A DNA stretch of 64,000 bases, taken from Candidatus Latescibacterota bacterium. GTDB taxonomy: Bacteria; Latescibacterota; UBA2968; UBA8231. Numbering within the stretch: position 1 is the first letter of the stretch; each line of letters begins with the position of its first letter. The position numbers and the translations under genes are program-made. Below, piece after piece: positions 39,151-58,035 of the stretch. The stretch is taken from contig OZ242214.1 in assembly GCA_965206595.1 (NCBI GenBank), positions 6,624,001 through 6,688,000 on the forward strand. Reading direction: 5' to 3'. A model generated the notes under the pieces. That model did not search any database and was not told the DNA's origin. It saw nothing but the letters and a program-made list of their open reading frames with translations.

Positions 39151-39171
39151 GGTGGAGTTAAATCTTTAATA

Positions 39172-39439: not shown

Positions 39440-40825
39440 TTGAATCCACTTTCACGCTACGTCCTCGCTCAGCATCTGGGCCCGTTTCTGTTCGGCTGTT
39501 CCCTGATCGTGTTCGTGCTGGTCATCGACGTGGTCCTGCAGATGATGGACCGGGTGCTGAGCAGGGGGCTGTCGTTCGCCGCGGCAGGCCAGCTGTTTTT
39601 CTACAACCTCGGCTGGATAGTCGCGCTCGCCGTGCCGATGGCCGTGCTAGTGGCGGTGTTGATGGCGTTCGGCCGGCTCTCGGCCGACAGCGAGATCCTC
39701 GCCCTCAAATCGAGCGGCATCAGCCTGGTTCAGCTGATGAAGCCGGTCCTTGTGGCAGCCGCGATCCTGACCGCACTGATGGTCCTTTTCAACGATCGGG
39801 TGCTCCCCGACTGGAACCACAAAGCCCGTAGCATCCAGGCCGACCTGAAGCGGCGCAAGGCCGCCCTCGTTCTCAAGCAGAAGGAAGGCCTCTTCATCCG
39901 CGATCTGGGCGGATACAACCTGCTAATCCGCCGCGTCGACGAGGCGGAAAACAGGCTCTACGGGGTGACCCTCGTCGACGGCGGTCGCGGCAGCGGCCCG
40001 CCGCAGACGCTGCACGCGGACTCGGCTGAGGTGCGAATCTTCGACGACGGAGGGTACATGCGCCTGACCCTGTTCGACGGCGAATTCCACCGCATCGACT
40101 CCCAGAATCCCCGGCAGTTCGTCGATGGCCGCTTCGAGCGCCAAGTAATTCACATAAAGGACCGCGACCGGGCGGCGCGGACATACCCTTCTACTTCCTC
40201 TTCCTACCGCAGCGACCGCGAGATGGATGTCGGCGCCATGATGACCGCGGTGACGGACTATCGCACCGAGCAGGCCCGCGAAACCGCGGCGATGGATTCT
40301 GCCGTGCATGCCTTCCTCGACACGGTGGCGGCCAGCTACGGAACGACTGCGGCCGGGGATGAGACCGAAGAAGGGCTATCGGAAACGCCACTCCGGGCGA
40401 GAGCCGAGAAAATCGCCAAACAGCTTCACAGGCAGAGGCGCCTCAACCAGAACCGCGAGCGCCGCGCAAACGCCTATCTCGTGGAGATTCACAAAAAGTT
40501 CTCGATCGCTGCGGCCTGCATAGTTTTCGTTCTCGTCGGGGGCCCGGCGGGAGCCCTCGTGCGCACGCGGGGGGCGGCGACAGCCGTCGTCCTCAGCCTG
40601 GTCTTCTTCTTTGTATACTGGATGTTCCTGATCGGCGGCGAGGGCCTGGCGGACCGCGGGTACGTTCCCCCCGCCCTGGCGATGTGGGCTCCCAATCTCT
40701 GCTTCGGCGGCCTCGGAATCCTGCTGCTGAGGGTGGTCGCCCTCGACCAGCCGACCGGCGGCCGCCTCGGCGGACGGCTGTTGGCAACCCTCGCCTACTA
40801 CCGCCCGGGGGCCCGCGTGCGATGA
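39440..40825 (+). CDS. lptF: LPS export permease, LptF/LptG family
   Basis: FGRLSADSEILALKSSGISL, EIHKKFS and AMWAPN. Confidence 0.88.
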   Translation: MNPLSRYVLAQHLGPFLFGCSLIVFVLVIDVVLQMMDRVLSRGLSFAAAGQLFFYNLGWIVALAVPMAVLVAVLMAFGRLSADSEILALKSSGISLVQLMKPVLVAAAILTALMVLFNDRVLPDWNHKARSIQADLKRRKAALVLKQKEGLFIRDLGGYNLLIRRVDEAENRLYGVTLVDGGRGSGPPQTLHADSAEVRIFDDGGYMRLTLFDGEFHRIDSQNPRQFVDGRFERQVIHIKDRDRAARTYPSTSSSYRSDREMDVGAMMTAVTDYRTEQARETAAMDSAVHAFLDTVAASYGTTAAGDETEEGLSETPLRARAEKIAKQLHRQRRLNQNRERRANAYLVEIHKKFSIAAACIVFVLVGGPAGALVRTRGAATAVVLSLVFFFVYWMFLIGGEGLADRGYVPPALAMWAPNLCFGGLGILLLRVVALDQPTGGRLGGRLLATLAYYRPGARVR

Positions 40826-41889
40826 TCCTCGATCTCTACCTCCTGCGGCGGTTCGCCGTCTGGTTCGCCATCAGCGTCGTCGCCCTGTGGCTGATCGCCG
40901 CCATCGTCGACCTCATCGAGAGCATCGACACCTTCATCGACCACGCCGCACTGCCCGGCCAGATCCTGAGATACTATCTCTTCCGGAGCCCCTACTGGAT
41001 CGTGTTGATCCTGCCGGCCGCGGCGATGCTCGCCACCCTTTTCGCCCTCACCGGGTTTGCGCGCCGCGGCGAGATCGCGGCGATGAAGGCGGCAGGGGTC
41101 AGTCTCCACCGCCTCCTGATTCCGGTGCTGGCCAGCGCCCTGTTGTTCAGCGGCGGGGCCATGCTTTTCACCGAGTACGTCGTTCCTCCGGCGACGTTCC
41201 GCTACAACACGACCAGGGACGACATTCGCTCGTACAGCCGCAGCGACGGATCACGGCGGCAGGTGCTGCTCCAGGACATCGGCGGACAGCTGGTGTTCGC
41301 GCGCTCGTACGACCACACCAGGCAGCGGGCCCAGCAAGTGCTGTGGGAGAGCCGGCCCGGGGGCCGTACGGGCGAGCGCGCCGCGGCGGAGCGGCTGGAA
41401 TGGAACGAGGGGCGCTGGGTGCTGGTCGAAGGCACCCGCTACGCGCTGACCGGCGACCGCTTCGAGGTCAGCTCCTTCGACACCCTGACCCTTTCGACGT
41501 TGACCCTCGAGCCCGGCGATTTCTCACGCCAGCGGAAAAAGCCGGAAGAGATGAATTTCGGTGAGCTGAGGTCCTACGTGGACCGCGCCCGCGCCAACGG
41601 CGAGGACGCCACCCGCCACCTCGTCGACTTGCACCTGAAGATCGCTTTTCCCCTCGTATCCTTCGCGATCGTCCTGGTCACGGCGCCGCTGGCCGCCAAC
41701 ACCCGTCGCTCGGGGCGCGCCGCCAGCTTCGGGTTCGGCGTGCTGATCTGCTTCCTGCTCTACACCTGCGTCAAGGCGGGACAGGCGCTCGGGTGGAACG
41801 AGATCATCCCCCCCTGGCAGGGGGCCTGGGGGGCCAATCTCGTTTTCGGCCTCATGGGCCTGATACTGCTGAAGAGGGCGCACTCGTAA
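40822..41889 (+). CDS. lptG: LPS export permease, LptF/LptG family
   Basis: MILDLYLLR, GEIAAMKAAGVS, PEEMNFGEL and LHLKIAFP; overlaps the lptF stop. Confidence 0.88.
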   Translation: MILDLYLLRRFAVWFAISVVALWLIAAIVDLIESIDTFIDHAALPGQILRYYLFRSPYWIVLILPAAAMLATLFALTGFARRGEIAAMKAAGVSLHRLLIPVLASALLFSGGAMLFTEYVVPPATFRYNTTRDDIRSYSRSDGSRRQVLLQDIGGQLVFARSYDHTRQRAQQVLWESRPGGRTGERAAAERLEWNEGRWVLVEGTRYALTGDRFEVSSFDTLTLSTLTLEPGDFSRQRKKPEEMNFGELRSYVDRARANGEDATRHLVDLHLKIAFPLVSFAIVLVTAPLAANTRRSGRAASFGFGVLICFLLYTCVKAGQALGWNEIIPPWQGAWGANLVFGLMGLILLKRAHS

Positions 41890-43528: not shown

Positions 43529-46306
43529 TCATCGCAGACTGGCGTACACCGTCGCGAACGACAGGCCGCCTGTCTCCGATTGCCGCTTTCGGTCCGATCT
43601 TTCGAAGCTTCTTCTGTTGAGGCTGTACCCGAACTGGGTTACCAACCGGTAGCCTCCGTACTCTCCGATGTTGGTCACCTGGGCCGCCAGCACGGTGTTG
43701 CGGAAGTCGCCGGTGAATTCCCCATCTCCCACCTCTTCGTCATCAACGATCAGTTCCTCGAAGAACAGCTGCTCGACCCCCAGCTCGACGTGACTCCTGT
43801 TGAGGAACGGGAATCGCACCGAGACATCGAGCGTGCCGGTCCACTCCCGGCGCTCCTCCCCTCCGAGCGCATACGGGGTATTGTCTCGCAGAAGCTCGCT
43901 TTTGACTCTGGGCCGAATCTGGAGGCTGCCGGCGTCGATCAGGTACCCCGCCTTGTTGATGACACCCAGGAAGCGGGTGCTCTCCTTGTGTCCGCTCTCC
44001 GACGAACCTTGTCTCAGGGTCTGGTACTTGAGCTTGTGAGCGAAGTTTACTCCCAGATTTTCCCGGCGCTCCAAGCCTAGCCAGGCGGTGTTGATCCAAG
44101 TGTCGAGGGCGGCAAGGGGGTCGGCGACCGGTATCAGCGAGCCTGTCGAACCTGGCGCCTGCACCCACTGTACCAGATCGTCCTGGATGTCGTCTTCCGC
44201 TTTCTTGAGCAAGTTGTAGAAACGCAACTTGCCCGCCCCGGCAAAATCCCGCTCAAAGGCAACCATCCCGTAGGTCGTCTGGTTTCTTCGGTCGTCAGAT
44301 ATCAGCTCCTGGCGCGTCTGCCCCGCCTGCAGCCGCAACTCCGGAGACAGGTAACGGCGCAGGTACAGGTTATACCCCTTTAGATTCCGTTTGTAGGGAT
44401 AATCCGGTTCGTTGTCGTTCTCGAAGCGGTCGGTCCAGCCGTTGTTGTTCAGGTCGATTCCGAACAGAAACTCGGGGCGGTCCGAGGCGTAGCGCAGGAA
44501 GGGCTCGTCGTAATCGGGAAAGACGTTTTCCTGCAGTCGATTGCTGTTCTGGTTGAAGTCGGAGACGAAATCGCCGTTCTCGTCCCAACCCGGAAAAATG
44601 GCGTCGTCGGCAAAACCTGCCGAGGAGCGACTCTGGTTCTGCCTTTGGTGCCCCTGCCTCGGGTCCTGGAAAAGCCGCTTTTGATCGGGGAGCCTGTCGT
44701 CGTCGTCATTGTCATCGACGAAATCGTACAGGCTTCGGGTGTCATCCTCGTAGTCGACCCTGCCGATTCCGTCGAGGATATAGGAACTCGTGCTGTAGTC
44801 TTCGTCCATGTAGAAGCCTTCAGCAAGGAAATACCAAGGGTAGTCCGATTTCGACAGGTTCATCATCCAGGCCTGGGCACTCTCGTCCCCTTCGATCCCC
44901 GAGAACGACCGGTGTTTCTGCAACTGGTTGTTGGGATACTGCCTGTACCGATGGTTGACGTCGAATTCGGTGAACAGCCGGAAGCCGAGGATGTCCTTCG
45001 TCTCGAGGGTGAGCCCAAAGATCTGGTTTGCCGTCGGCAGGCCGTAATTGAAGGCGACCTCGCGCCGGTTCGAGCCGTCCTGTATGTTGCCTGCGGCCTG
45101 GGCAACGGTCAGGAAAACCGGCTGCCCTTCGAGGTTGGTCTGCCGGTCGGAGGTGACTTCCACCTTGTAGTCGTTGACCAGAATCAGGCGAAAGCGGACC
45201 GCCCTGATGTTCTTCACGAGATCCCTGTCGCTTATGATCTCCCCCAGTCTGCCGAGCTCGTAACGCAGCAGGATCTGCTCGCTTCCGTCGGCGACCAACA
45301 CTCCTTCCTTCAGCGTCCCCCCCTCCCGGTCGGGCGGAAAGCCGATGCTGTTGCCCGAAAGAACGGTGTCGACACCCCCGATGGTGGTCGCGACCTCGAT
45401 ATCGTCGTAAAGGAGGACCGCTCCGCCCCTTGAATCCCCCGGTGAATCGTCGCTCAGCCTGATGGTTATCGTGTTGACCTGGTTCTGCACCTGGCTCGTC
45501 GACAGCGCCCCTTTCAGCGGGTTGCCCTTGAAGCTTTCCAGGGTACCTCTCGTGCTGTGGGCGTTCACGAAGGTGCCGCCGAGGGTGACGTAGTCGCCGA
45601 TGTTGAACTCCGCCCTGCCCGCCTGCATGTTGACGGCGTTGTTGAGGGCGGCGGGATTCGGGTCGGTCGTGAAGCCGGGAGCGCTTATCCGCGACATCAG
45701 CCCGGTGATCACCAGCCGGTCCGAGGCGAAGTCTACCTTTGTTCCGTTGTAAGCCGCTTTGCGGAAAGTCATCGGCGTCAAGGTCGTTCCGATCTCGTCG
45801 CCGATCGTGACGGCGTAGGAGTACTGTCCCTTCTGGTCCACGGCAATGATAAGGTTGGAAAAGAAGGCGGAGTATTTGTCTTTCCTGAGGATGCGGCTGC
45901 CTTCCGAGGTTCGCGGACGATCTTCGGTCCAGTTGTAGATCAGCCACCCCCTGGTGAGGAAGTTCCCAAAGTTGTCGTAGTGATATTCACCCTGCAGAAG
46001 GGGGGACAGGTAGCGCTTGTAGGAATCGCCGGCGTAGTTGGTGGTTTGCCACGTTCGCCACCGGTACTCGTCGCGGATCTCCTGTGGCAGGTACTGTTTC
46101 CTCAGCATCGGGTCGAGGAGATCCGTGTCGACACCCGGCCCGTACGGTCGAAAAACCACTCCAGTTGGTCCCCGTTCTCCCAGACGGTTGCCGTACTCCG
46201 GCTGCGCTCCTCCCGGTTGCGGCCAACCTGCCAGGGCGGACAGCAGGCAGAGGATCCCGATACTGCTTCCCCGGCGTCCGAAGATGGTCGGTATGAGGTC
46301 GTTCAT
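43529..46306 (-). CDS. secreted or outer-membrane hypothetical protein, paralog B
   Basis: Signal peptide; long motif sharing with the 46323-49118 protein; Asp/Asn-rich loops; alternating strand pattern ending FATVYASLR. Confidence 0.8.
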   Translation of the reverse strand: MNDLIPTIFGRRGSSIGILCLLSALAGWPQPGGAQPEYGNRLGERGPTGVVFRPYGPGVDTDLLDPMLRKQYLPQEIRDEYRWRTWQTTNYAGDSYKRYLSPLLQGEYHYDNFGNFLTRGWLIYNWTEDRPRTSEGSRILRKDKYSAFFSNLIIAVDQKGQYSYAVTIGDEIGTTLTPMTFRKAAYNGTKVDFASDRLVITGLMSRISAPGFTTDPNPAALNNAVNMQAGRAEFNIGDYVTLGGTFVNAHSTRGTLESFKGNPLKGALSTSQVQNQVNTITIRLSDDSPGDSRGGAVLLYDDIEVATTIGGVDTVLSGNSIGFPPDREGGTLKEGVLVADGSEQILLRYELGRLGEIISDRDLVKNIRAVRFRLILVNDYKVEVTSDRQTNLEGQPVFLTVAQAAGNIQDGSNRREVAFNYGLPTANQIFGLTLETKDILGFRLFTEFDVNHRYRQYPNNQLQKHRSFSGIEGDESAQAWMMNLSKSDYPWYFLAEGFYMDEDYSTSSYILDGIGRVDYEDDTRSLYDFVDDNDDDDRLPDQKRLFQDPRQGHQRQNQSRSSAGFADDAIFPGWDENGDFVSDFNQNSNRLQENVFPDYDEPFLRYASDRPEFLFGIDLNNNGWTDRFENDNEPDYPYKRNLKGYNLYLRRYLSPELRLQAGQTRQELISDDRRNQTTYGMVAFERDFAGAGKLRFYNLLKKAEDDIQDDLVQWVQAPGSTGSLIPVADPLAALDTWINTAWLGLERRENLGVNFAHKLKYQTLRQGSSESGHKESTRFLGVINKAGYLIDAGSLQIRPRVKSELLRDNTPYALGGEERREWTGTLDVSVRFPFLNRSHVELGVEQLFFEELIVDDEEVGDGEFTGDFRNTVLAAQVTNIGEYGGYRLVTQFGYSLNRRSFERSDRKRQSETGGLSFATVYASLR

Positions 46307-46322
46307 GCTCCCAAGCCCCTCA

Positions 46323-49118
46323 TCACTCCAGACCGGCGTAAATGGTCAGGAAAGTGGTGCCCGTGGTTTCGGAGTCCATCCTCTTCACAGTTTCCAATTC
46401 CCGGATCTCGATCGTCTCGATCGCCGCCCGCGTCAGTCTGAATCCGGTCTGCAGCAGCAGCTTGTAGCCCTGGTAGTCGGTGCGCGTCGACCACTGCAGG
46501 GCGAGGTTCGTCTCGTTGAGATCTCCCGTGGGACCGATCGTGTTCTGGTTGAGGAGATCCTGCTCGTCGAGCTCGAAATCGGCTAGATGCATCAGCTCTA
46601 GCCCCAGCTCCAGCTGCGAGTTCCGCAGGATCGGGGTCTTGCCCGTCAGGGAAATCAGGCGCCGCCACTCCTTGCGGTCCTGGTTGCGCTTCAGGAATGC
46701 AGTCTGGCGCAGGAACTCGCTCTTGACCCGCGGCTGCAGGATGAAGACGCCGATCTCGTACGTGTAATCTGCCCGATTGACGATTCCCAAAAAGGCGGAT
46801 TCGCCGTTGAGCTGGCTGCCGTCCAGGGCCCGCGGATCGTCATCCTGCTGCGCATAGGTCTCGAGCTTGAACTTGTTGACGACGTTGAGATTGGAGATGC
46901 GCCGGTAGTCGAATCCCAGCCACAGTGAGTTGACCCAGGTGTTCGGCGCCGGCACGATATCGGGGACGTTGCGCGGCGCTCCGGCGAGCAGGAAGGCCTG
47001 CGGCTCGAAGCGGTCGTCGGGAATTTCGTCCTCGACCCTCTTGAGCATGTTGAAAACCCGCAGGCGCCCCAGCGACGAATAATCCCTGTCGAAACTCACG
47101 AGACCGTAGGTCGTGTTGTTCCTCCGGTTCGACGACAGCAGCTCCTGCCGGGTCTGTCCCACGGTCACCCGCCCGTAGGCGGTGAGATCGACACCCCCGT
47201 AGGCGTTGTAACCGCTGTGGTCCCGCTTGTAGGGGTAGTCGGACTCGTCGTCGTTTTCGAAGCGGTCGATCCAGCCGTTGTTGTTGAGGTCGATGCCGAA
47301 CAGGAATTCCGGACGGTCGACGGTGTACCTGAGGAACGGCTCTTCGTAGTCGGGAAGGCGATTGCTGATCGAACGGTTGTCGTTCTGGTTGAAATCGGAG
47401 ACGAAATCGTTGTTCTCGTCCCAGCCAGGGAAGATCTCGAGGTCGCGCCCGCCCTGGTTAGGCCGCTGCCAGTCCGGGTAGCGGTCCTGGTCGTCGTTGT
47501 CGTCGACGAATTCGTAGAAGGAACTCGAGGGGCGGTCGTAGACCACGTCGCCGAGGATGTTGACGATGTAAGAGCTTGTCGAGTAGTCGCGCTCCATCGA
47601 GAACGCCTCGCCAAGAAAGAACCAGGGAAAAGACTGGTACGAGGCGTTCACCATCCATGCTTCGGAGCTCGAAGAGGCGGTCGAGAAGGTCTTGTTGTCG
47701 TTGAAGCGGGCGGCGTTCGGATACTGCCGAAAGCGGTGGTTGACGTCATACTCGGCGTACACGTCGAGCCCCTTGACGTCGGTGAGCTCGATGGTGAAGC
47801 CGGCGATCTGGTTCGCCGTAGGCAAGCCGTAATCGAATGCCACGCGCTGGCGGTTGGAGCCGTCCTTGACGTTCCCCGAGGCTTGCGCGACATCGAGCAG
47901 GGCAGGATTCTCGCGGTCGAGGGCCGCTATGGTCAAGGGGGCGTTCGGCACGACCGACTGACCGGTCTGCCGGTCGGACCATACTTGGACCCTGAAGTCG
48001 TTGGCCAGTATCAGCTCGAAGGCGACCTCGACGATCTCGCTCGGGTCCGGGCCGATGTAGGCCGGATCGGTGAAGTCGTAGTTGATAATCATGCGCTGAC
48101 GACCATTGGCCGACAGGAATCCTTCTTCGAAGAAACCGCCTTCAATGATCGGCCAACGGGTCGGATCGCTGGTCAGGTCTGCGAGCCGCAAGGTAGTTCT
48201 GGCCCCACTCTGGAAATCTTGGCGGACGACCTTGACGTCGTGGGAGAACAGGGCCGCCCCCGCCTCCCCGTCCTCCGGGGAGTCATCGCCCAGGATGAGG
48301 GCGATCGCCGTCACCGGGGAGCTCCCCTGTCCTTCTGCCAGGGTCCCTTTGAAGGAATTGCCGGTGAAGGCACCGAGGCTCGAGCGCGAGTTGTGGGCGT
48401 TGACGAGGGTGCCTCCGACGGTGACGAAGTCGCCGACCTGAGCCGTCAGGCGGCCCGCGATCAGATTGGTCGAGCTGGTGCGGCGGTCCGGCGCCGTGAC
48501 CGATCCATTGATCGGGCTGTTGGCGCGGGAAAGCAACAGCGTCCCGGTGAACTTGTCGGTCGCCGCATCGAGCTGAATCCCGTTGTAGCGGGGCTTCGAG
48601 AAGGTCAGCGGCGTCAGTGTCGTGCGGATGTCGTCGCCAACGGTGAGGGAATAGAATACCGACCCCTTCGAGTCGGATGCCACGGCGAGGCTGCTGAACC
48701 AGTTGCGGTAGTTGGCATCCTGGTAGATCGAGCTGCCCTGGGGGGTGTTCGCCTCCTGGCGCCAGTCGTAAATCAGCCACCCCCTGGTTACGTAGTTCCC
48801 GTACACGTCGTAGAAATAGTCGCCTTCGAGCGCCGTGTTGACGTAGCGCTGGTAGGGTACCCTGGCGTAGTTCGAATACTCCCAGGACTTCCAGCGGTAC
48901 TCGTTGTAGAGCTCCTGGGGGACGTACCACCTCTTGACCGCCGGGTCGAGGGCGTCGAAGAGAACGCCGGCGCCCCGCGGTTCGAAGGTGACCGTACCTC
49001 CGCGCCGCGTCCCCAGGCGGGCGCCGTAGTCCTGCGCCAGGGCGGTGGTCGCCAGTCCTGCCGCGGTGAGGACGGGGATCAGCAGGCACGCGTACCCCCT
49101 CATGAAAATCCCGGTCAT
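46323..49118 (-). CDS. secreted or outer-membrane hypothetical protein, paralog A
   Basis: Signal peptide (ALA-QDYG); FPGWDENxDFVSDFNQN and DRPEFLFGIDLNNNGWxDRFEND shared with paralog B; ends FLTIYAGLE. Confidence 0.8.
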   Translation of the reverse strand: MTGIFMRGYACLLIPVLTAAGLATTALAQDYGARLGTRRGGTVTFEPRGAGVLFDALDPAVKRWYVPQELYNEYRWKSWEYSNYARVPYQRYVNTALEGDYFYDVYGNYVTRGWLIYDWRQEANTPQGSSIYQDANYRNWFSSLAVASDSKGSVFYSLTVGDDIRTTLTPLTFSKPRYNGIQLDAATDKFTGTLLLSRANSPINGSVTAPDRRTSSTNLIAGRLTAQVGDFVTVGGTLVNAHNSRSSLGAFTGNSFKGTLAEGQGSSPVTAIALILGDDSPEDGEAGAALFSHDVKVVRQDFQSGARTTLRLADLTSDPTRWPIIEGGFFEEGFLSANGRQRMIINYDFTDPAYIGPDPSEIVEVAFELILANDFRVQVWSDRQTGQSVVPNAPLTIAALDRENPALLDVAQASGNVKDGSNRQRVAFDYGLPTANQIAGFTIELTDVKGLDVYAEYDVNHRFRQYPNAARFNDNKTFSTASSSSEAWMVNASYQSFPWFFLGEAFSMERDYSTSSYIVNILGDVVYDRPSSSFYEFVDDNDDQDRYPDWQRPNQGGRDLEIFPGWDENNDFVSDFNQNDNRSISNRLPDYEEPFLRYTVDRPEFLFGIDLNNNGWIDRFENDDESDYPYKRDHSGYNAYGGVDLTAYGRVTVGQTRQELLSSNRRNNTTYGLVSFDRDYSSLGRLRVFNMLKRVEDEIPDDRFEPQAFLLAGAPRNVPDIVPAPNTWVNSLWLGFDYRRISNLNVVNKFKLETYAQQDDDPRALDGSQLNGESAFLGIVNRADYTYEIGVFILQPRVKSEFLRQTAFLKRNQDRKEWRRLISLTGKTPILRNSQLELGLELMHLADFELDEQDLLNQNTIGPTGDLNETNLALQWSTRTDYQGYKLLLQTGFRLTRAAIETIEIRELETVKRMDSETTGTTFLTIYAGLE

Positions 49119-49154
49119 ATAAGAACTCTCCCTTTTTTCCAGAAGCGGCGCCCG

Positions 49155-51374
49155 TCAGTACGCCACAACTACTATCCCATTCTTTTCTTCGTTCCCGGAG
49201 TCGGCGTCTACGGAGATGCTGTACAGGTAGGATCCCGGTGGCACGGTATTCCCGAAAGCATCGGTTCCGTCCCAGCTTCGCGAATACCTCCCGCTTTTGT
49301 CGGTGCCCGTGTATACCTCGCGCACCAAGCGGCCGGAAAGGTCGTATATCCACGTTGTGACCTCCGCCCTCCCGATCAGGCTCGTCACGTCGTAGTCGAG
49401 GACCGTGGTTTCGTTGAATCCGTCGCCGTTAGGGGTAAATACTTCCGGAGTGGCCCCCGCGTTTATCAGGAGGGCCCCTTTTATCGGAATTTGGACGACG
49501 ATGTTCGCCGCATTGCGCACTACCTTCCCCCCGGATGCGGAGGCGATGTCCGCGGCGTTGCCGCCGCTCAACTCCTGCGGCAGGCCGTCGGGGGCTTCGG
49601 GAAGAGCCCTGCCCGAAAAAGCGGTCGCCGCCCTCAGCACGGGGCAGGTGAACTTCACATTGAGGACGGTCATCTCCCCGTCTTCGATACGGCTGGATTC
49701 CACGGTGGGAAAACCGATGCGGAAGCGCGTCTCTTCGACTTGGTCGACGCTGATATCTCCACGCCGGATCGGAAGGGTGCTGAGGTCGGCGTCCTCGAAG
49801 TTTTCGGCAGAGGTGCTGCCATCCGGCCTCGTATAGGTGATCTCGCCTATGGATACGACACGCACCGGCGTCGAAATCTCGAGAGCGCTGAACCCGAGGT
49901 CGATTCCGGGACGCAGATCGGGGATCACGGTGTAGGAAAACTCCCGAGCGCTGCCCAGGTCGGCTTCCCGGGGACTGATTTCAGCAACGATCTGCTCCGC
50001 AAGAGAGGGGCCGGAAACGTCGATGGAAAGGGATCCGAGACTCCTGGCGGAAAACAGGTCGTCGTTCTCGAAGTCGATCCTCACCTGGAAGTATCGCGCC
50101 GGCCCGGGCGAAACGATCGGGGTTCCACCTTCTCCGTCGGCGATCTGGAGAGCAGTTCCGGCCCCCGCCGGGGAGTACGGCGGCGACCACGTACTCCAGT
50201 TGTCCACGTCGTCGCGCACAAGGCCCTTGACCCCCGAATTGAGGCGGCCGTATTCCCCTTCACTCAAGGCGATGGCGTTGCGCTGATCGAGCGGCAACTC
50301 GCCGTAGAGCCGCAAAGCCGCCCGCGGATCGAGGTCTTCGGCATCGAGCATCTCGACGATCTCTCTCTCCTCGGTGCCCCCGTCGTACTCCCCGGCACCC
50401 GCCCATGGCACCTGCGCGCCGTCAGGGCGGCGACGGTTGAAAACCACCGGGGTGTCGTCGATACCGGTTCGCGTGCGGATCTCGACGCGCGAGCGCAGGG
50501 AATCGCCGATGCTCTCCTCTTCCCAGCGAATCCTGCCCCAGAGAGCAAGGTCCTCGCCGAAATCGAGGATGTTGGTCAAGTACTGTGCCCGGGGCACGAA
50601 ACCGGCCCCGAAAACCTGAAACTCGGCGATTTCGAAATCGACGGTGGTCAGCGATTTGAGCTGGATGTGGCGCACGAGCTGGGGTTCGATGATCAACTCG
50701 ACAACGGGCTTGTCGTTCTGCAGCTCGAGCAGGACCCCGGGTCCGAACACCGGCCGGCCGCTGATCTGGGTTTCGTCGGAGCCGTCGTTGAGAAACAGCT
50801 CGAACGCCCGCAGGAAATCGTCTTCGAACGGAAACGCTTCGGTGGCGTAGGCGGGGTCGGCGTTCCTGGGAAAGAACTTGAACCTGCTGACGCCGAACTG
50901 CGAGCCGAGATCGAACTGCATGACGACCCCCAGGGTGTTCACCTGCCTTCCGGGGGAGTCCTTTCTCTCGAAGGCGGTCTCCCCGTCGTCGTCGATCATC
51001 TGGGGAAGTACGGTGTCGAGATTCTCGAACACGTTCGGCGCGGTAACCGCACCGCCGCGTTGGAGCAGGCCCAGGGCGATATTCTCGGATTCATCGGCCA
51101 GTTCCGGCGAGATCCATCCATCCCTGGTCTCGAAGTCGATGACGCCTCCAGGGGTGTTCCCGAACTCGATCTCCTGAGAGCCTGTGATGTAGACCGGGGT
51201 GATTCCTTCGCCGCCACTACTCCAATCGATGCCGTTCTCCCCACCGAAGACGATGGTGCGCCCATTTGCCGTAGCCGCCGTACAGGCCAGAACCAGAACT
51301 CCTTCGAGAAGCCGTCGAAGAGGTTTGTTTCGCCGGCGCCCCGATTCCCTGCACCCGGTTCGTTCAGAATTCAT
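49155..51374 (-). CDS. secreted protein with discoidin-like region and FlgD-Ig/CHU_C-like C-terminal domain
   Basis: Signal peptide; C-terminus FTPNGDGFNET..IYDLSGRLVR..WDGTDAFGNTVPPGSYL..VVVAY. Confidence 0.8.
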   Translation of the reverse strand: MNSERTGCRESGRRRNKPLRRLLEGVLVLACTAATANGRTIVFGGENGIDWSSGGEGITPVYITGSQEIEFGNTPGGVIDFETRDGWISPELADESENIALGLLQRGGAVTAPNVFENLDTVLPQMIDDDGETAFERKDSPGRQVNTLGVVMQFDLGSQFGVSRFKFFPRNADPAYATEAFPFEDDFLRAFELFLNDGSDETQISGRPVFGPGVLLELQNDKPVVELIIEPQLVRHIQLKSLTTVDFEIAEFQVFGAGFVPRAQYLTNILDFGEDLALWGRIRWEEESIGDSLRSRVEIRTRTGIDDTPVVFNRRRPDGAQVPWAGAGEYDGGTEEREIVEMLDAEDLDPRAALRLYGELPLDQRNAIALSEGEYGRLNSGVKGLVRDDVDNWSTWSPPYSPAGAGTALQIADGEGGTPIVSPGPARYFQVRIDFENDDLFSARSLGSLSIDVSGPSLAEQIVAEISPREADLGSAREFSYTVIPDLRPGIDLGFSALEISTPVRVVSIGEITYTRPDGSTSAENFEDADLSTLPIRRGDISVDQVEETRFRIGFPTVESSRIEDGEMTVLNVKFTCPVLRAATAFSGRALPEAPDGLPQELSGGNAADIASASGGKVVRNAANIVVQIPIKGALLINAGATPEVFTPNGDGFNETTVLDYDVTSLIGRAEVTTWIYDLSGRLVREVYTGTDKSGRYSRSWDGTDAFGNTVPPGSYLYSISVDADSGNEEKNGIVVVAY

Positions 51375-51543
51375 AAGAAAGTCGTAATCCTTCCCCCGAT
51401 GGACGGGGAAGTATCAATTCTCCGAATCGCGGTACGTTTCCATAGGAAATCCCACAGCATGGCAGGGAGGCTGCGAGGAGCCGGCAGATTGGAAAATCGC
51501 GGTTCCGCTTCCCGATAGGGAGGCATTCCAAGTCGAGGGCTCC

Positions 51544-54276
51544 TTAATACGCCACGTGGATCAGCCGGTGCGCCGCTGTCGAGGTAGCCGACGCGGAATC
51601 GACAGCGATCTCGATTCTGGCGATGTAGATGCCCGGGGGCACGAGCACTTGGGAATCGTCGTCCCCGAGCCAGGAGATCGCGTAGGAACCTCGCGGATCC
51701 GTCCGCTTTTCCATGGTCTGGCGTACTACGGTGCCGCCGAGGTCGAAAATAGTCAGCCTTACCTCGCGCTCGCTGTTGATGCGAGCGACCGTGAAATGGA
51801 ACGTCATCATATCGTTGATGCCGTCCCCGTTGGGAGTGAGAACCCCCGATCCTGTGGAGAGATTGCTGATTACCTCGTTCCCGGCCAGCGCCAGGACTGC
51901 CGTTGTCTGGCTGTTGACCAGTTCGGTGGCGTCGCCGGCATCGACGCGCTGCCATAAACCGGGCTCCTCAGAGTTCTGCCCGGCCACCTTGAACGAAGTG
52001 CTCGTGGAGAAAATCGTCGGCCTGAAGCGCACTTCGACGAGGTCCGTTCCCTTGGCTACTGGTTCGGGCAATCGAAACCACAACGTGCTGTCAGCGGAGC
52101 CAATCATCACCAGCTCGGCTGCCGAAAAGACCTTTGCTCCGTCCCCGGCGAAGTCTTCATCGCTTCCGACCAGCGCCTCGACCAACTCCATGGTGGTTCC
52201 TCCGGTCGCCTCTATTCTCAACTCGTCGAAGCGCTGCCTGGAACTGGAAAACGAAGGGCGTATGAAGAAGGACAGGTCCAATGGTTTTCCGAGATCCTCT
52301 ACCTGGCTCGGAAACACTTCGCCGACCAGGCGATCGGCCACAGGATCCGAGAAATTCACCGTGATCGAGTGCAGAGACGCCCCCACATCTGCCAGTTCGG
52401 AGAACAAAGTCGCACGGATCTGCATGAACTCCCTGGGGCTCGGAGAGGTGATGTCGGCCCCCTGAAACTGGTACGGAGGACTCCATGCAGACCAGTCTCC
52501 TCCGGGTATGAAGAAGTTTTTTACCTCCCCCTTCTTCGACTTGGGCAGGCGGTCGTATTTCGATTTTGCCGCCTCGGGATCGTCGACCGGCTCCACGGGA
52601 TTACCATTAGAATCGAAATAGAGGAAATTCTCGATCAGCTCGTTCCCGGAACGTGTCTGGATTTCGATGCGGGTCCCCTCGGGAAAGTCGGCTTCCCAGG
52701 AAATCGTGCTGAGGTTCTTGCTGCCGCCGAGCTCGATGAGATCGGAAACCATCACCAGTTCCGGAACGAACCCTTCCCCGTACAACAGCATTTCCGCGAA
52801 AGCCGTGAACGTTCCCAGTACCCCACCGCCTCCCGGATTTGATTTGAGCGTGCCGATCGTGCCTTTGAGATAGCGCACAAGGGTAGGCTCGATATCGTAC
52901 TGGCGGAATTTTTGCGCCCCCTCACCAGCGCAGTGATCGCACGAATACCCGAAATGGGATCCCGTGCCTCCCACTCCCAGCCCGGTGACCTCACCCGCCG
53001 CCCGCGTCCACTTGATGCTTCCATCCGGAGCGCGGGAACCGTCCGATACATCCACCGCCATCTCGTCGATCGCATCCTTGCCGTCCATCAGGAACTGCAT
53101 GGTGTCGACCCAGTAGAGAGCGCCAAGATCCACGACGAAGTCGCTCGGACCGAAGTGCCTGAACAAGGTAACGGTATGCGCCGTCGAATGCCTGCCGTCG
53201 ACTGCGACCGCGGTGATGTCCTTCCACCCCAGGCCCGGACTCGGAAACTCAATGTTGACGCTGCCGCCCCGTTCCGCCATTCTGAGCGCCAAGTTGTCTC
53301 CCGAGGTCCAGACCTCGATCTCGGCGACCCGCGGCCGCTCTCTTCTGTAATACCTGATCGAGCCCCGGCGCTCCTCCCTGATGTTTTCGTACTCGCTCCG
53401 GGAGATCAACGTCTCGCGTCCCGATGGCTCGCGACGGTAGTGATCGATGGCGCCTCGCTCCTCGGGGGATATGGCCCCGTACTTTTCCTCGGCGGTCTCC
53501 CCGTCGGACAACACCTCGGAAGACCTTTCGAGATCTGTGTCAGTGGCGAATATCTGAATCCTGTCTATGGCGTCGCCGCCGAAACTGTCGCTGGCGGGAA
53601 TCAGGGATTCCGGAGGCCGGAATGTGTTGTTCGCCTCGGGATCCGGAAAAAACTCGAACACCCTCTGACTTTTGTTCGGCTTGTCCGTCCTGCCCAGCTC
53701 CCAGTACTTCGGAATGTCCGGGGCTCCGTTCAGCCAGAGCTCGGGAGCTCCTCTCGGAGGAGCGTGGCGCCACGCGAGTACCTTGAACTGCAGGAACGGA
53801 TCTCCCTCTTCTTCCTCGGCGAAGCGCACCACGATCCTGTTGGCAACCACTATGCGCCCGAGGTTTACTTCCGCCCACCATTCGGACAAAGGGCTGTCCG
53901 TGTCGGGTCCCCAGGTCGTTGCAGGGTTGCCGTCGATCAGGAACCGCGCCTCGCTGTCATTGGAACCCACAATGACTCCTCCCGGTCCATCGTCGAAAGC
54001 TGCTCCCTTGGCTTCGTTTTCGAACTCCGTGGCGTCGAAAGCTGCGTTGATGCCTTTGCGCATGAAACGAGGTCCGACGGAGCCATCGCCGGTTATTTCC
54101 GCGGTGCCGCCCGCGACCGCCCACTGCTGCCAGTGGGAGCTGCGGTCAACGACAATCTCGTTTCCCTGTATGCTGTATCCGAGCTGAGCCGACAGCGGCG
54201 ACGAACCTGGGGCAATAACGGCCAAGGCAGCCGCGAACGAAATCGGATGAAAGATCTGCACCTTGGAATTTATCAT
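51544..54276 (-). CDS. secreted protein with discoidin-like regions and FlgD-Ig/CHU_C-like C-terminal domain
   Basis: Start set at MINSKV (signal peptide; ORF is open to 54363); LIDGNPATTW and WAEVNLG; C-terminus LTPNGDGIND..IFDLGG..VPPGIYI..IHVAY. Confidence 0.8.
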   Translation of the reverse strand: MINSKVQIFHPISFAAALAVIAPGSSPLSAQLGYSIQGNEIVVDRSSHWQQWAVAGGTAEITGDGSVGPRFMRKGINAAFDATEFENEAKGAAFDDGPGGVIVGSNDSEARFLIDGNPATTWGPDTDSPLSEWWAEVNLGRIVVANRIVVRFAEEEEGDPFLQFKVLAWRHAPPRGAPELWLNGAPDIPKYWELGRTDKPNKSQRVFEFFPDPEANNTFRPPESLIPASDSFGGDAIDRIQIFATDTDLERSSEVLSDGETAEEKYGAISPEERGAIDHYRREPSGRETLISRSEYENIREERRGSIRYYRRERPRVAEIEVWTSGDNLALRMAERGGSVNIEFPSPGLGWKDITAVAVDGRHSTAHTVTLFRHFGPSDFVVDLGALYWVDTMQFLMDGKDAIDEMAVDVSDGSRAPDGSIKWTRAAGEVTGLGVGGTGSHFGYSCDHCAGEGAQKFRQYDIEPTLVRYLKGTIGTLKSNPGGGGVLGTFTAFAEMLLYGEGFVPELVMVSDLIELGGSKNLSTISWEADFPEGTRIEIQTRSGNELIENFLYFDSNGNPVEPVDDPEAAKSKYDRLPKSKKGEVKNFFIPGGDWSAWSPPYQFQGADITSPSPREFMQIRATLFSELADVGASLHSITVNFSDPVADRLVGEVFPSQVEDLGKPLDLSFFIRPSFSSSRQRFDELRIEATGGTTMELVEALVGSDEDFAGDGAKVFSAAELVMIGSADSTLWFRLPEPVAKGTDLVEVRFRPTIFSTSTSFKVAGQNSEEPGLWQRVDAGDATELVNSQTTAVLALAGNEVISNLSTGSGVLTPNGDGINDMMTFHFTVARINSEREVRLTIFDLGGTVVRQTMEKRTDPRGSYAISWLGDDDSQVLVPPGIYIARIEIAVDSASATSTAAHRLIHVAY

Positions 54277-54367
54277 AAGCCCTGCGATTGTTTCTCGACG
54301 CGGTAACGGTGTGAACTCTGGACTGATTCTCTTTAAAAGGATCTTCTTCAACTTGGACGTCAATGCA

Positions 54368-54412
54368 ACAGAAAGAGAACAGGGGGGGCTCCTGTTGTTT
54401 GAACCCCCCCTG
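54368..54412 (-). terminator. intrinsic terminator after the CBM9-like gene
   Basis: Minus strand CAGGGGGGGTT-loop-AGCCCCCCCTG followed by TTCTCTTTCTGTT. Confidence 0.7.
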
Positions 54413-54445
54413 CCTGTTTACTACGCCCTTTCCTCGTCTACTTCA

Positions 54446-55396
54446 TTACTCCTCGATGAGGAAATCGGACTTGATTCGGCCCCAAGTGTCGGTCTCGACA
54501 GCCGTCGGCCACAGCGAGTCGTCGATTTCGAGCAACTCGAAGTCGGCGAGCAGACTGCTGTTGCGCCAAGTGTCGTGCAACGGCGGAAAATCATACGAAG
54601 CCGAGTAACGCTCACCCTCGACGGGAACGTCGAAATCCTTGAACATGTAGGCAATGCCGAGGATGCTACCCACTTCGAGATCGACGATAGTGCTGCGGGA
54701 CTCGCCATCTTCACCGCGATACAGGTTCTCCCACGGGGTCACCATCATCTCGTAGGTGCGGGTTCCGGGTTCGTAGAGCTCGGCATTGAGCGTCCAACCC
54801 ACCTCGAGGTACTGGGGGGCCAGGATCTCGCGACCGGTGGTCAGGAAGTTGTCGTTGCCGACAAAACCGCGACCGAGCATGAAGATGTAGTAGCCGTCGA
54901 GGGGCGGGGTGTAGTAGCGGTAGTTCTGGCCCGAAACGAAGATCAAGTCGATCTGGTCGTCGTGCTCTTCTGCGTGCCAGTCACTGTTCCACAAGTCGCC
55001 GCCGCTGTGGTCGGCATCGACGATGAAATCGAAACCGTCATCCCAATCGACGCCGGAGGGGTCTTCCTTATCCCTCTTGAAGTAGTCGTCAAACACGTCG
55101 GCCGTTACATAGAGGCGGTTGGTCTCTTCGTTCCAGCCGAGGATGTGCTTGGTGTTGAAATCGTCGAGTCTGACTTCGGTGTCGTTGCCGACCACCGTCT
55201 CTTCGAAATCATTCTCGCGAGTCACCCAGTACGACTCGGGAACCATGTCCCAATCGCTGAGGTCGCCATCGATGGTCGGAATGGCGTGGGTCGGGAACGC
55301 GACCGCGAAGTACGTCACGCCCGGGGGCTCGTGCGCCGAGGCGGCGCTGAGGCCCAGGATGAGGCTGAGTGAAAGAATGCCCTTCAAACTTTTCAT
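54446..55396 (-). CDS. secreted CBM9/DOMON-like protein with TWGxIK tail
   Basis: GAGGAG RBS; signal peptide; PTIDGDLSDW, GWNEETNRLYV, DGFDFIVDAD and YEMMVTPW; tail TAVETDTWGRIK. Confidence 0.78.
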   Translation of the reverse strand: MKSLKGILSLSLILGLSAASAHEPPGVTYFAVAFPTHAIPTIDGDLSDWDMVPESYWVTRENDFEETVVGNDTEVRLDDFNTKHILGWNEETNRLYVTADVFDDYFKRDKEDPSGVDWDDGFDFIVDADHSGGDLWNSDWHAEEHDDQIDLIFVSGQNYRYYTPPLDGYYIFMLGRGFVGNDNFLTTGREILAPQYLEVGWTLNAELYEPGTRTYEMMVTPWENLYRGEDGESRSTIVDLEVGSILGIAYMFKDFDVPVEGERYSASYDFPPLHDTWRNSSLLADFELLEIDDSLWPTAVETDTWGRIKSDFLIEE

Positions 55397-55604
55397 TGCT
55401 TTGGATCTCCTCACGGACTGAAGGGGTTTTGAAAAATTGCAATCGCCACACTCTGTGTCGTTGCAAGTCTGCCGGCAGAATGGGCGCCGACAAGGAATTG
55501 TTCGTCGAGTTGTCGCATTGAACTGCGCCTGCCGCGAATGCGGTACTCATTCAGCTCGGTCCCACTCATAGGCTCATCCGGCAAGTTCTGAGTTCATTCC
55601 TTAA

Positions 55605-55656: not shown

Positions 55657-55821
55657 AATGAAACAGTTTTGATAAAAGGTGTTTGGAGTTAGGAATCGTT
55701 GGAAATGTACGCCTTCCCGATGTTCCAAAGCAAGAGGCAAGCACTCGGAGATGAACAATTGAACACTGGTGAACCGTTGCGCCTTCAGGTCTCCTCCGGT
55801 TCGGATGACGGCAATTCTCCG

Positions 55822-57987
55822 TCATTTCCTCTCTTCGAGGAACTGTCGCACCGAGGCCGCCAGTGGGTGCTCCGGCCCGAGCTCAAGACCCTTCAGTGCC
55901 ACCTCGTAGGCACGTCGGTACTGGCCGGTGGCGTAGAGCGCTTTGGCGAGGTTGAAGTAGGCTGTTGAATGAGTAGGGTCGAAATCGAGGAGCCGCTCCC
56001 ACAAGCGGATCGCCTCTCCGACCCGACCGGTGCTGGCGCAGGCGATCGCCAAGTCGTTGTAGTACTCGGGACCGTCGGGAAACAAGGCCACCGCGGCCCT
56101 CAGTAAGGGCAGTGCCCGGTCGTAGGCGCGCAGGTAGCCATGGGCGATTCCCGCGTTTCCATACAGGCGGTGGGCGTAGACATCGGGCAACAAGTCGGAC
56201 AACTGAGGCACCTTCAGGGCCCGGTCGAAGGTGCGCACCGCCTCGTTCCAGTCGGAGGCCCGCATCGCCAGCGACCCGATCCGGGTATTCAGCAGCACGT
56301 CGAACAAGGTACTGGCGCCTGGTTCGGCACCCTCCATGTCGGACGGCAGTAATCCCAGCCGGATGGTGGGACCGGAGTGCTCCATCCCGGCTAACCCCGA
56401 CAGCGGCAGGAAATACCAGTCCATGGGATCGAATGCCGCTGCATCCACCCCTGTACCGGGTGAAAATGTCTGCGGCCACGAAGCGGAAGAGACGAGTTTC
56501 CCGGAATTCGGCGACACCTCGGCATCGGCGCAGAGCGGGTGTCGATACTCCAATAAAACAACATGCGGACTCGCCCCGGTTGCCAGCCTTGCACTTTCCC
56601 AAACCCTAGCCGGGTCAGGTTCGAGAAACAGCGGCGGAAGATGTTCGCGTTTGCGAAGCCAATCGTACGCCGCGATCAGCTTCTCCTCACCATAGCTGCG
56701 AAGAAAATGCGTCTCCCTGACGAGGACTCGGCGCGGTGTCAGCACCTGGATGTTCCCGCACCTGTCGGGGAGGTGCACCAGCCGCCTGCTGGCGGGGGCG
56801 TTGTTCTCCATCCAGGTGACGGCCTGTTCGCGCGTGTCGCTGCCTGACAGCAGAGCCCTGGTGTGCAGCGAGGCGTAGGCCGGCTCCGCGAGCAGGACGG
56901 CGAGAACCGCCGCCATCAGCGTGGGGCTGCGGCGCAACCGGAGCAGGGGCCGAACCATCAGCACCGACATGATCGGAGTCAGCGGCAGCGCGTATCGCAT
57001 GAAAACCGAGCCCGCTGCGGCCAGCAGAATCGCGAAGGCACCCAGTCCTGAGAGCAGAACGACCTCGTCCCTCTTCAGGCTCCCCGGCTTTCTCGCCAGA
57101 GACAGAAGCAGGAGGGCGACCCCCGCCAGGCCAAGGCCGAAACGCAGGGTGTGACGCAAGTGGAAAAAAAAGGGCCGTTCTACGGCCGCATTCGGAAGCA
57201 AATGGTCGCCGCCCATTTGGGCGAAGTCCTTCCAGAAAGCGGCCGAATCCAGCCACACGTACGGAGTCGCAGCACAGAACGACAGCACCGCCGCAGCGCC
57301 GGCGCACCAGATGCCGGGATGGCGCAGAGAAGGGGTCCGCAGCAACGCCGCGGCCGCGACTGGCACCGCGACCAGGGCAGCCGGGTACTTGGTCGCTCCT
57401 GCCAGGCCGGCGAAGAGCCCGGCGACCAGCGCATCGACACAGGTCCCCCGTTGCCGCATCCGCACCGCAAACACCAGGGCCAGGCTGACCCACAGCACCG
57501 CCGGCGTGTCGGTGTTGGCGAGATGGCCGAAGCGCACCGACAGTGGCATCAGCGCCAGGACAAGGGCGGCCAACAGCCCCCCGGCGGAGCCGTACAGGAG
57601 ACGCCCTAGAAAGGCTGTCACCGCCACGGTAGCCGCCGCCATCACGGTGCTGCATGCGCGGGCGAGTGACAACAGATCGCCGCCGTCGACGAAATACCGG
57701 TAGGCGACGAACTGTTCCAGCGGAACGCTTTCCGCCAAGGTGAACTTTGCGAAATAGAGAAGGGATACCAGGTAGAACTGAAGGGTCGGATAGTTGAAGA
57801 AGTGGGGATTGAGATCGCCGCTCCAGAATCCCAGCGGAATCAGGACCAGCGATTCCTCATCGAAGTGCGACCACTCCGGCGCCGGGAGCGGCCAGCGCAG
57901 CCACAGCGAGAGAAGCACCGTCCCCCCCAGCAACCAGGGCCAGTATCTCGCGATGGACAGGGAAGAGTCGGGAGGCTGCGTTCTCAC
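55822..57987 (-). CDS. GT-C fold (GT39/PMT-like) membrane glycosyltransferase with C-terminal TPRs
   Basis: HFDE after TM1, NPHFFNYP, ANTD, GLAGATKY, multiple TMs; TPRs YNDLA and YFNLA. Confidence 0.8.
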   Translation of the reverse strand: MRTQPPDSSLSIARYWPWLLGGTVLLSLWLRWPLPAPEWSHFDEESLVLIPLGFWSGDLNPHFFNYPTLQFYLVSLLYFAKFTLAESVPLEQFVAYRYFVDGGDLLSLARACSTVMAAATVAVTAFLGRLLYGSAGGLLAALVLALMPLSVRFGHLANTDTPAVLWVSLALVFAVRMRQRGTCVDALVAGLFAGLAGATKYPAALVAVPVAAAALLRTPSLRHPGIWCAGAAAVLSFCAATPYVWLDSAAFWKDFAQMGGDHLLPNAAVERPFFFHLRHTLRFGLGLAGVALLLLSLARKPGSLKRDEVVLLSGLGAFAILLAAAGSVFMRYALPLTPIMSVLMVRPLLRLRRSPTLMAAVLAVLLAEPAYASLHTRALLSGSDTREQAVTWMENNAPASRRLVHLPDRCGNIQVLTPRRVLVRETHFLRSYGEEKLIAAYDWLRKREHLPPLFLEPDPARVWESARLATGASPHVVLLEYRHPLCADAEVSPNSGKLVSSASWPQTFSPGTGVDAAAFDPMDWYFLPLSGLAGMEHSGPTIRLGLLPSDMEGAEPGASTLFDVLLNTRIGSLAMRASDWNEAVRTFDRALKVPQLSDLLPDVYAHRLYGNAGIAHGYLRAYDRALPLLRAAVALFPDGPEYYNDLAIACASTGRVGEAIRLWERLLDFDPTHSTAYFNLAKALYATGQYRRAYEVALKGLELGPEHPLAASVRQFLEERK

Positions 57988-58035
57988 CCTCCGTAGGTTG
58001 CGCGCGTGCGAGTTGGGTACCGCTGCGACATTGCA

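Follow-up and report, generated by a model that had tools for sequence, protein, structure and literature searches.

A recurrent cassette of tailed, lectin-like surface proteins and predicted giant outer-membrane barrels in Latescibacterota

What would a bacterium do with a set of genes that places lectin-like surface proteins beside barrels of giant size, and that it carries many times over? This question is raised by a locus in a 64,000-nucleotide stretch of Candidatus Latescibacterota bacterium (contig OZ242214.1, positions 6,624,001 to 6,688,000; hereafter the window), which is part of a single-contig genome of 7.05 Mb with a G+C content of about 59-69%. An earlier note, made from the letters of the DNA, had described five co-oriented genes here as a module of one binding protein, two tailed surface paralogs and two barrel-like paralogs, and the listing of open reading frames (ORFs) in the window bears out the arrangement, with all five on the minus strand. 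Their N-termini are charged and then run into a hydrophobic stretch, and the signal peptides were called by eye. In window coordinates, the genes are as follows.

A, 54446-55414, minus strand: secreted protein of 322 aa, without a lipobox cysteine or a type IX secretion system (T9SS) tail, weakly CBM9/DOMON-like
B, 51544-54363, minus strand: 939 aa from a TTG, or 910 aa from an ATG at residue 30 (54276, the likely start)
C, 49155-51374, minus strand: 739 aa, lectin-like surface protein, the conserved partner upstream of the barrel
D, 46323-49118, minus strand: 931 aa, predicted giant outer-membrane beta-barrel of an undescribed family
E, 43529-46306, minus strand: 925 aa, predicted second barrel, a paralog of D

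The answer that we favour, and which we judge to fall just short of probable, is that the cassette, of which this genome carries 11 copies, makes a glycan-binding complex at the cell surface, seated on a giant outer-membrane barrel. The T9SS-type tails on C and B and the barrel D/E encoded alongside them lie outside that judgement; everything further in this proposal is what we infer.

Recurrence and extent of the cassette

We used a six-frame phmmer scan with A to E to locate related genes across the genome, and found 11 loci with close copies of D or E, all of which also carry B and/or C genes. Searching the whole-genome protein set with D returned 42 matches. Distant D-like barrels are encoded at four more loci, in runs of four, three, three and one, and three of these four loci adjoin a C-like gene. 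Altogether, the matched segments of the five families add up to 200,655 bp, or 2.8% of the genome.

The comparison across genomes covered 78 loci, all taken from GTDB species genomes. Where the sequence upstream of D extends far enough to tell (67 loci), the gene directly before it is C in 64 cases, and 63 of 75 loci encode a second barrel downstream, at a distance from D of no more than 3.2 kb. Of 62 related loci, 55 have A and 47 have B, and an extra C-type gene is found in many loci. Thus gene order does recur, both within this genome and among its relatives, and the linkage of barrel homologs to tailed genes that the earlier note had supposed is conserved. The composition that it had read from this copy is a different matter: 1+2+2 is true of the genes at hand but is not the conserved unit, whose invariant core is C followed by D, and the two-plus-two stoichiometry that it had proposed is not kept, given the variable presence of E and B and the additional C-type genes. 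Both the paralogy and the linkage are far beyond chance.

The commonest gene order, counting in genes for tetratricopeptide repeat (TPR) proteins and for a peptidyl-prolyl isomerase (PPIase), is TPR-A-C-B-C-D-E-PPIase, found at 11 loci, and the next are (A)-PMT-C-D-E-C-B, C-D-A-C-PPIase-B and PMT-A-B-C-C-D-E. A SurA-like PPIase, a TPR protein and a PMT_2-TPR protein are the recurrent genes in the gaps of the related loci, and their counterparts in the window are given below.

SurA-like periplasmic PPIase, 58036-59916, minus strand: 626 aa, heads the co-oriented run
PMT_2 (GT-C type glycosyltransferase-like membrane domain) protein with C-terminal TPRs, 55822-57987, minus strand: 721 aa
Second PMT_2+TPR protein, 59888-61930, plus strand: 680 aa, divergent, a probable cassette member

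The PPIase of the window matches Rotamase_2 (E 1.1e-20) and Rotamase (E 3.8e-14). Of 11 such paralogs in the genome (E < 1e-10), 10 are no further than 20 kb from a barrel gene, at 10 of the 11 cassettes; among the 62 related loci that span 18 kb or more, 50 include a PPIase. The minus-strand PMT_2+TPR protein matches PMT_2 at E 3.8e-15 along with several TPR families, and the plus-strand one matches PMT_2 at E 7.8e-10 along with TPRs and has paralogs beside other cassettes. TPR or PMT_2-TPR genes are present in 42 of the 62 related loci. This recurrence of PPIase and PMT_2-TPR genes at the cassettes makes the unit larger than five genes. The five genes that had been delimited are therefore a real part of it, but the limits drawn around them were too narrow and left out two kinds of gene that belong.

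A quick maximum-likelihood tree of this genome's copies places six E-type proteins as sister to nine D-type proteins, with mirrored internal branching, which indicates that D/E pairs have been duplicated as units. We also examined 151 genomes of the phylum, in which the D family occurs in 95, the C family in 86 and SprA in 143. All 86 genomes with C also have D; the two travel together across the phylum. In 51 genomes of families f2-f4, which belong to the same class and are mostly more than 90% complete, C and D occur in none and SprA occurs in 50. Compared with that of SprA, this distribution marks the module as a lineage-specific accessory of a T9SS-bearing phylum and not as a core part of the T9SS.

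Some copies are interrupted. At the 6.37-Mb cassette the B-type and E-type genes are each split into two adjacent ORFs (genome 6369285-6371793 and 6373707-6376431), and a B-type gene at 2.42 Mb is likewise split in two (genome 2424790-2426474). Frameshifts, pseudogenes or assembly errors are possible causes. Separately, the labels of metagenome-assembled genomes carrying near-identical cassettes are inconsistent, and include Latescibacterota, Gemmatimonadetes/Gemmatimonadota, 'Gemmatimonas phototrophica', Handelsmanbacteria and Myxococcales.

Surface proteins, predicted barrels and protein A

C and B align at 25% identity over 529 columns (E 9e-28), and the alignment contains every motif that had been listed for their common core and tail: GxGFVP, (V/I)EIxTRxG, WSxWSPPY, IxSPxP and TPNGDGxN(D/E). 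The AlphaFold2 model of C (pLDDT 87.1, pTM 0.79) has Ig-like sandwiches in its middle part, flanked by two further domains.

CBM32 / F5-8 type C-like beta-sandwich of C, residues 94-261, 50592-51095, minus strand: structure match
C-terminal sorting-type domain of C, residues 633-739, with TPNGDGFNE, 49158-49478, minus strand: CHU_C, FlgD_ig and PorU C-terminal domain (CTD) matches

The first of these superimposes on the module CBM32-6 of CpGH89 (4a42_B; VIA Z 14.9, rmsd 2.1 A, 123 residues), and many further CBM32 modules match it at Z 12-14. The second matches the CTD of P. gingivalis PorU (6za2_B) at Z 12.2 over 99 residues with 21% identity. Other matches of the C model are a SusE-like protein (7m1a, Z 11.3) and, among Ig-array proteins, the S-layer protein 7ptp_A; there is no catalytic domain among its structure matches. 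B has a discoidin-type domain in addition to its C-like core (F5_F8_type_C_2, 27.8 bits, at the cut-off) and a match in the PorU-CTD region (E 1.3e-7). We conclude that C and B are multidomain proteins of lectin-like character that have no enzyme domain and end in a T9SS tail resembling type B.

The assignment to type B draws on several profiles. In C itself the tail scores 40.3 bits with FlgD_ig and 37.2 bits with CHU_C, against a cut-off of 27 for both. Within the C family (n=43, matches at E <= 0.001) CHU_C is found in 40 members and TIGR04131 in 28, the best at 1.2e-7, compared with two for the type A model TIGR04183, and the tail is accordingly closer to type B than to type A, as had been suggested. 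A profile of the tail run against the PDB finds FlgD and C5a-peptidase Ig domains only. The pattern [STN]P[ND]GDGxN occurs in the last 130 residues of 44 ORFs in the genome and all 44 are of the B or C family, which makes the type-B-like tail exclusive to that family here; 25 of the 44 lie within 5 kb of a barrel gene. PorU-CTD-like tails are found on at least 49 other proteins of this genome.

A secretion apparatus for such tails is present, in so far as the T9SS core can be judged from SprA, PorU and a PorV-like gene. SprA is encoded in the window as a single gene (32656-38829, 2057 aa; SprA_N E 1.2e-33), PorU scores 617.6 bits against a cut-off of 420, and the PorV-like gene beside PorU scores 141 bits, below its cut-off of 250. 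The module thus co-occurs with sprA in this genome. SprA and an LptF/LptG pair (window 32656-41889) lie 1.6-4.7 kb downstream of E, and in a genome of the same genus SprA is about 8 kb from the orthologous D/E pair. This adjacency may be incidental, since only one of the 11 cassettes is near sprA.

D and E are the colinear, tightly spaced paralogs that the letters had suggested: 403 of 928 positions are identical (43%, full length, E = 0), and the gaps are 36 bp between C and D and 16 bp between D and E. Neither has a Pfam or NCBIfam family at E <= 0.1, and the 52 members of the D family are all without a significant Pfam match. The AlphaFold2 model of D, built from a 52-row alignment (pLDDT 69.7, pTM 0.65), has long antiparallel strands at residues 143-508 and 634-930, and no long helix except the signal peptide; its DSSP strand list gives a count of about 26-30 strands. 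Foldseek against the PDB returned 41 matches at E <= 0.001, nearly all of them outer-membrane barrels, headed by Deinococcus radiodurans SlpA (8ae1_A, E 5.4e-8, about 940 aligned columns) and followed by MtrB, LptD and SprA. VIA-align matches residues 445-930 to 16-18-strand barrels (TamA, BamA and porins) at Z about 14, and its whole-length alignments are with SlpA 7zgx (Z 12.0, 440 residues, rmsd 9.5 A), MtrB and the FimD usher. Structure prediction with Foldseek therefore yields for D a barrel, neither a soluble enzyme nor a member of a characterised family, and the suggestion that the two proteins of about 930 aa are novel giant barrels stands. We describe D and E as predicted giant outer-membrane barrels of an undescribed family, for which there is no Pfam or NCBIfam model and for which no paper was found. 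The family is large, with 965 clusters at E <= 0.001 in a library of 1.84 billion protein representatives. In a protein atlas a D homologue falls in unnamed clusters of its own, the nearest named one being DUF6029 at 0.89, which is a lead only.

How D and E relate to SlpA is less clear-cut. TM-scores between D and SlpA are low, at 0.23-0.26; none of the 52 close D/E relatives matches SlpA_C (PF21620), three sequence profiles, one of them built from 73 barrel-family members, find nothing significant in the PDB, and Pfam finds neither an SLH domain nor any other in D or E. Sub-threshold SlpA_C signal appears in 9 of 24 distant full-length representatives, the best at 30.2 bits for a cut-off of 35. 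D and E are possibly remote relatives of SlpA_C. They do not match the PorP/SprF models PF11751 and TIGR03519 at E <= 0.1, nor do the 52 relatives at E <= 1. These models have no match anywhere in the genome either; they were silent in all 14 control genomes too, so that this is not evidence of absence.

Two segments of D are strongly conserved and poorly modelled.

N-terminal segment of D, residues 25-141, 48696-49046, minus strand: many invariant residues, pLDDT below 50
Asp/Asn-rich insert of D, residues 539-626, 47241-47504, minus strand: invariant D/N/G/P columns, pLDDT below 50

The former, about 115 residues after the signal peptide, has about 20 invariant columns (G36 to G128) at a pLDDT around 30, and could be a partner-dependent or plug-like segment. 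The invariant columns of the latter run from D540 to D627, in loops that we take to resemble the calcium loops of EF-hands and dockerins; the Pfam families TSP_3, EF-hand and dockerin have no match in D.

Protein A is not a lipoprotein, as its N-terminal hydrophobic stretch has no cysteine, and it has no Pfam or NCBIfam match at E <= 0.1. In the A family one of 35 members matches CBM9_1 (E 0.068), a homologue (P0239) carries a precomputed PF06452 match, and the atlas clusters nearest to a 47%-identical homologue have CBM9_1 in 13%, 37% and 94% of their members. These family and cluster matches lend weak support to the earlier description of the small subunit, and A appears weakly CBM9-like. 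At its end is a further feature.

Extreme C-terminal motif of A (TAVE..TWGRIK..F, then 4 residues and the stop), 54449-54505, minus strand

Seven of the 13 A-family ORFs match the regular expression WG.[IVLM][KR]..[FYWLM] and four more are near variants, and genome-wide 59 of its 70 matches fall within 10 residues of a stop codon. This motif seems to be a tag for sorting or docking, of a kind different from both the T9SS tail and the lipobox. A literature search for 'WGxIK', with subscription journals outside its coverage, found nothing.

The motif is widespread: in the form (T/S)AVE-x-x-(S/T)WG(R)IKA(S)L/F, then 0-6 residues and the stop, it ends at least 59 proteins, mostly of 200-400 aa. 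Its bearers often stand in tandem arrays (genome 6974848-6984018, 446983-456040 and 2743246-2752459). Several are weak relatives of the A family, and 9 of 9 tested are without a Pfam match.

Possible functions of the cassette

The closest logic among known systems is that of type B CTD cargo and PorP/SprF (SprB-SprF; PG1035-PorP-PorE). In Bacteroidota, type B cargo binds a cognate PorP/SprF barrel, with which it is secreted and which retains it; the genes of the two are usually neighbours (PMC9143113; PMC12618676). Both systems encode a tailed surface protein next to a barrel, in the cassette directly upstream of it, and they are also alike in having several diverged cargo-barrel pairs per genome, some orphan cargo genes and a T9SS core. 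The cassette differs in that its barrel is of about 930 aa and not about 300, is without PF11751/TIGR03519 and usually comes as a D/E pair; in that it adds a SurA-like PPIase, TPR/PMT_2 proteins and a CBM9-like protein; and in belonging to Latescibacterota and not Bacteroidota. By analogy, then, the order of C and D may copy the genetic logic of type B cargo and PorP with a non-homologous, threefold larger barrel.

Following this analogy, our favoured proposal of a glycan-binding complex anchored on a giant barrel would work as follows. C and B would cross the inner membrane by Sec and then be exported through SprA, to be received and held on the cell surface, via their tail domain, by the cognate D barrel or D/E pair, which would stand in for a PorP/SprF-type shuttle. 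The CBM32-like modules of C and B would bind polysaccharide or host-matrix glycans, and A, with its CBM9-like character and separate C-terminal motif, would be an accessory binding subunit. The SurA-like PPIase that comes with the cassette would accompany the barrels, which are very large, or else the cargo, on the way through the periplasm, and the PMT_2-TPR protein would glycosylate a cassette protein on the periplasmic side. Multiple diverged cassettes would then provide different binding specificities.

A number of points weigh against this proposal. Contact of C or B with D or E is something that we infer and do not see directly. D and E have no detectable sequence similarity to PorP/SprF and are about three times larger, and an anchor leaves unexplained why there should be roughly 26-30 strands or two paralogs; moreover, the apparent lack of PorP/SprF itself comes from two models that are silent in controls. 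Neither C (24.5 bits) nor B (18.4 bits) reaches the curated TIGR04131 cut-off of 35 bits, B scores 25.9 bits with CHU_C, just below the cut-off of 27, and 15 of the 44 tailed genes are more than 20 kb from any barrel gene. It is the fold that suggests glycan binding by C and B, and it is from family names and gene position that we assign parts to A, the PPIase and the PMT_2-TPR protein. Lastly, the 78 related loci are not independent of one another; many are orthologous, yet several distinct paralogous arrangements are included among them.

The cassette could alternatively be an uptake device, which we think somewhat unlikely. D and E would be very wide channels that do the work of SusC or of giant porins, with B and C as glycan-capturing lids or feeders at the surface, and A would bind the imported oligosaccharide in the periplasm, so that the whole would be an enzyme-free counterpart of polysaccharide utilisation loci (PULs). 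The best whole-length fold match of D, the very large barrel SlpA, presumably forms a very wide pore, and the sub-threshold SlpA_C scores of the 9 distant relatives, the CBM32-like module and SusE-like match of C, the CBM9-like character of A and the 11 diverged copies per genome, with five families making up 2.8% of it, would all suit such a device. However, Pfam and NCBIfam find no Plug, TonB-dependent-receptor or SusD-like domain in A to E or in the recurrent neighbours, and among the 78 loci no glycoside hydrolase, TonB/ExbBD or sigma/anti-sigma gene is recurrent and no more than 2 of them have a sulfatase. Genes for glycosyltransferase-like proteins and for a chaperone of the cassette's own are also more in line with assembly than with catabolism. 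Thus, of the uptake or anchoring complex envisaged in the earlier note, the giant barrels and their linkage have held and uptake has no direct support; uptake as such is compatible with the anchoring model.

Comparison with SusC/SusD and SusE/F-like proteins leads the same way. The likeness lies in many diverged copies that pair an outer-membrane barrel with CBM- or Ig-like surface proteins; the cassette lacks the TonB-dependent receptor, Plug and SusD-like domain, its surface proteins are T9SS-tailed and not lipoproteins, and recurrent hydrolases or regulators are missing. Membership of SusCD was rejected on the lack of its defining domains in A to E. With SlpA_C barrels (PF21620; PDB 8ae1, 7zgx) the cassette has in common the best Foldseek match and the longest VIA alignment of D; the low TM-scores, the absence of an SLH domain or coiled coil from D and E, and the absence of SlpA_C matches from the 52 close relatives set it apart. 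By their defining features, the cassette is outside the PorP/SprF, SusCD and SlpA_C families.

Anchoring and conduction might also be combined. The cassette would then be a third, undescribed way for members of the FCB (Fibrobacterota-Chlorobiota-Bacteroidota) group to capture glycans at their surface, in addition to SusCD and PorP-anchored adhesins. A pair of SlpA-like giant barrels would both dock the T9SS-exported lectins and serve as a wide conduit for the captured material; a SurA-type chaperone of the cassette would assemble the system and a periplasmic glycosyltransferase, likewise its own, would decorate it. We consider this unlikely; if dock and conduit were both true, Latescibacterota would carry PUL-like specificity cassettes that need neither TonB nor linked enzymes.

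Could D and E instead be export or assembly pores, which translocate B, C and/or A in the manner of an usher or of two-partner secretion, with the help of the cassette's chaperone and with the FlgD-Ig tail docking on the pore? The likeness to chaperone-usher pili (FimD/PapC) consists of a large barrel, a cassette-encoded periplasmic folding helper, here a chaperone-like PPIase of its own for each cassette, and Ig-fold surface subunits. In the D model, six long strands are followed by a beta-rich insert of about 110 residues (271-381), in what we take to be a position like that of the usher plug; FimD (9bog_D) aligns over 337 residues at VIA Z 11.9 and PapC has a Foldseek E of 4.8e-4; and A, without a T9SS tail, has its conserved extreme C-terminal motif. 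This explanation nevertheless seems very unlikely to us. CHU_C, TIGR04131 and the PorU CTD are all matched by the tails, and the genome has a T9SS; many other barrels come ahead of the ushers in the structure matches; the A-type motif ends at least 59 proteins, most of them encoded far from any barrel; and for 15 of the 44 tailed genes the nearest barrel gene is more than 20 kb away. The folding helper is moreover a parvulin/SurA-type PPIase and not of PapD type, and no usher or pilin families were detected.

Equally improbable is a purely structural scaffold of abundant SlpA/OmpM-like barrels under a glycosylated, S-layer-like coat of B and C without specific ligand capture, for which the top fold match to SlpA and the weak SlpA_C signals in distant relatives, the PMT_2-TPR glycosyltransferase-like genes and the match of C to S-layer protein 7ptp_A can be cited, but which has to contend with the lack of an SLH domain or coiled coil in D and E, with eleven diverged cassettes that suit variable specificity better than one lattice, with CBM32-like modules being typical ligand binders, and with a profile of 73 barrel-family members that finds no SlpA chain in the PDB.

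If the complex anchored on a giant barrel is what the cassette builds, it would show type-B-like cargo paired with a non-PorP barrel outside Bacteroidota, and the 11 diverged cargo-barrel pairs are a natural set for studying tail-partner specificity. No Latescibacterota have been cultured, and what can be said of their envelope biology comes entirely from genomes. A major surface machine, repeated in this way, would affect how they attach to particles or hosts and feed on them. A literature search, again with subscription journals outside its coverage, found nothing relevant on T9SS or outer-membrane barrels in Latescibacterota/Latescibacteria. New here are the genome-wide census, the cross-tabulation of C, D and SprA, the tail exclusive to B and C, the cassette-specific PPIase, the co-duplication of D and E, and the motif of A.

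RNA-library matches and neighbouring genes

Contigs from two RNA libraries of one study, labelled as sponge metagenome, match a relative's copy of the locus at 90-97% identity, with gene A covered at a word depth of about 25 and small pieces of B to E at a depth of 2-4; a third run, which is RNA by guess, has exact pieces on A and on the C/D junction. These matches place a relative in RNA libraries and are a weak hint of expression, DNA carry-over being possible. The absence of RNA-library cover over 55680-60117 is not interpretable. Promoter-like sites number 6 against 3.7 +/- 1.8 expected and terminator-like sites 25 against 16.3 +/- 4.1, and these do not inform the limits of operons.

Four other kinds of gene recur as neighbours among the 78 loci: DUF6785+DUF6784 (20), FG-GAP/ASPIC (19), Amidohydro_2 (8) and a 631-aa protein of unknown family (7). 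These were rejected as parts of the cassette, being large scattered families with roughly 40 matches each in the genome. FG-GAP/ASPIC (UnbV) repeat proteins lie in many cases a few kb from cassettes, for example at genome 907436-909487, 4198183-4200240 and 4993206-4996286. In the window a DUF6785(+DUF6784) gene at 63487-63984 runs past the window's end, one of roughly 40 family matches in the genome, and several others, among them those at genome 4215790-4217811 and 6299268-6301484, adjoin orphan C-family genes with no barrel nearby, at distances of 26 bp and 187 bp.

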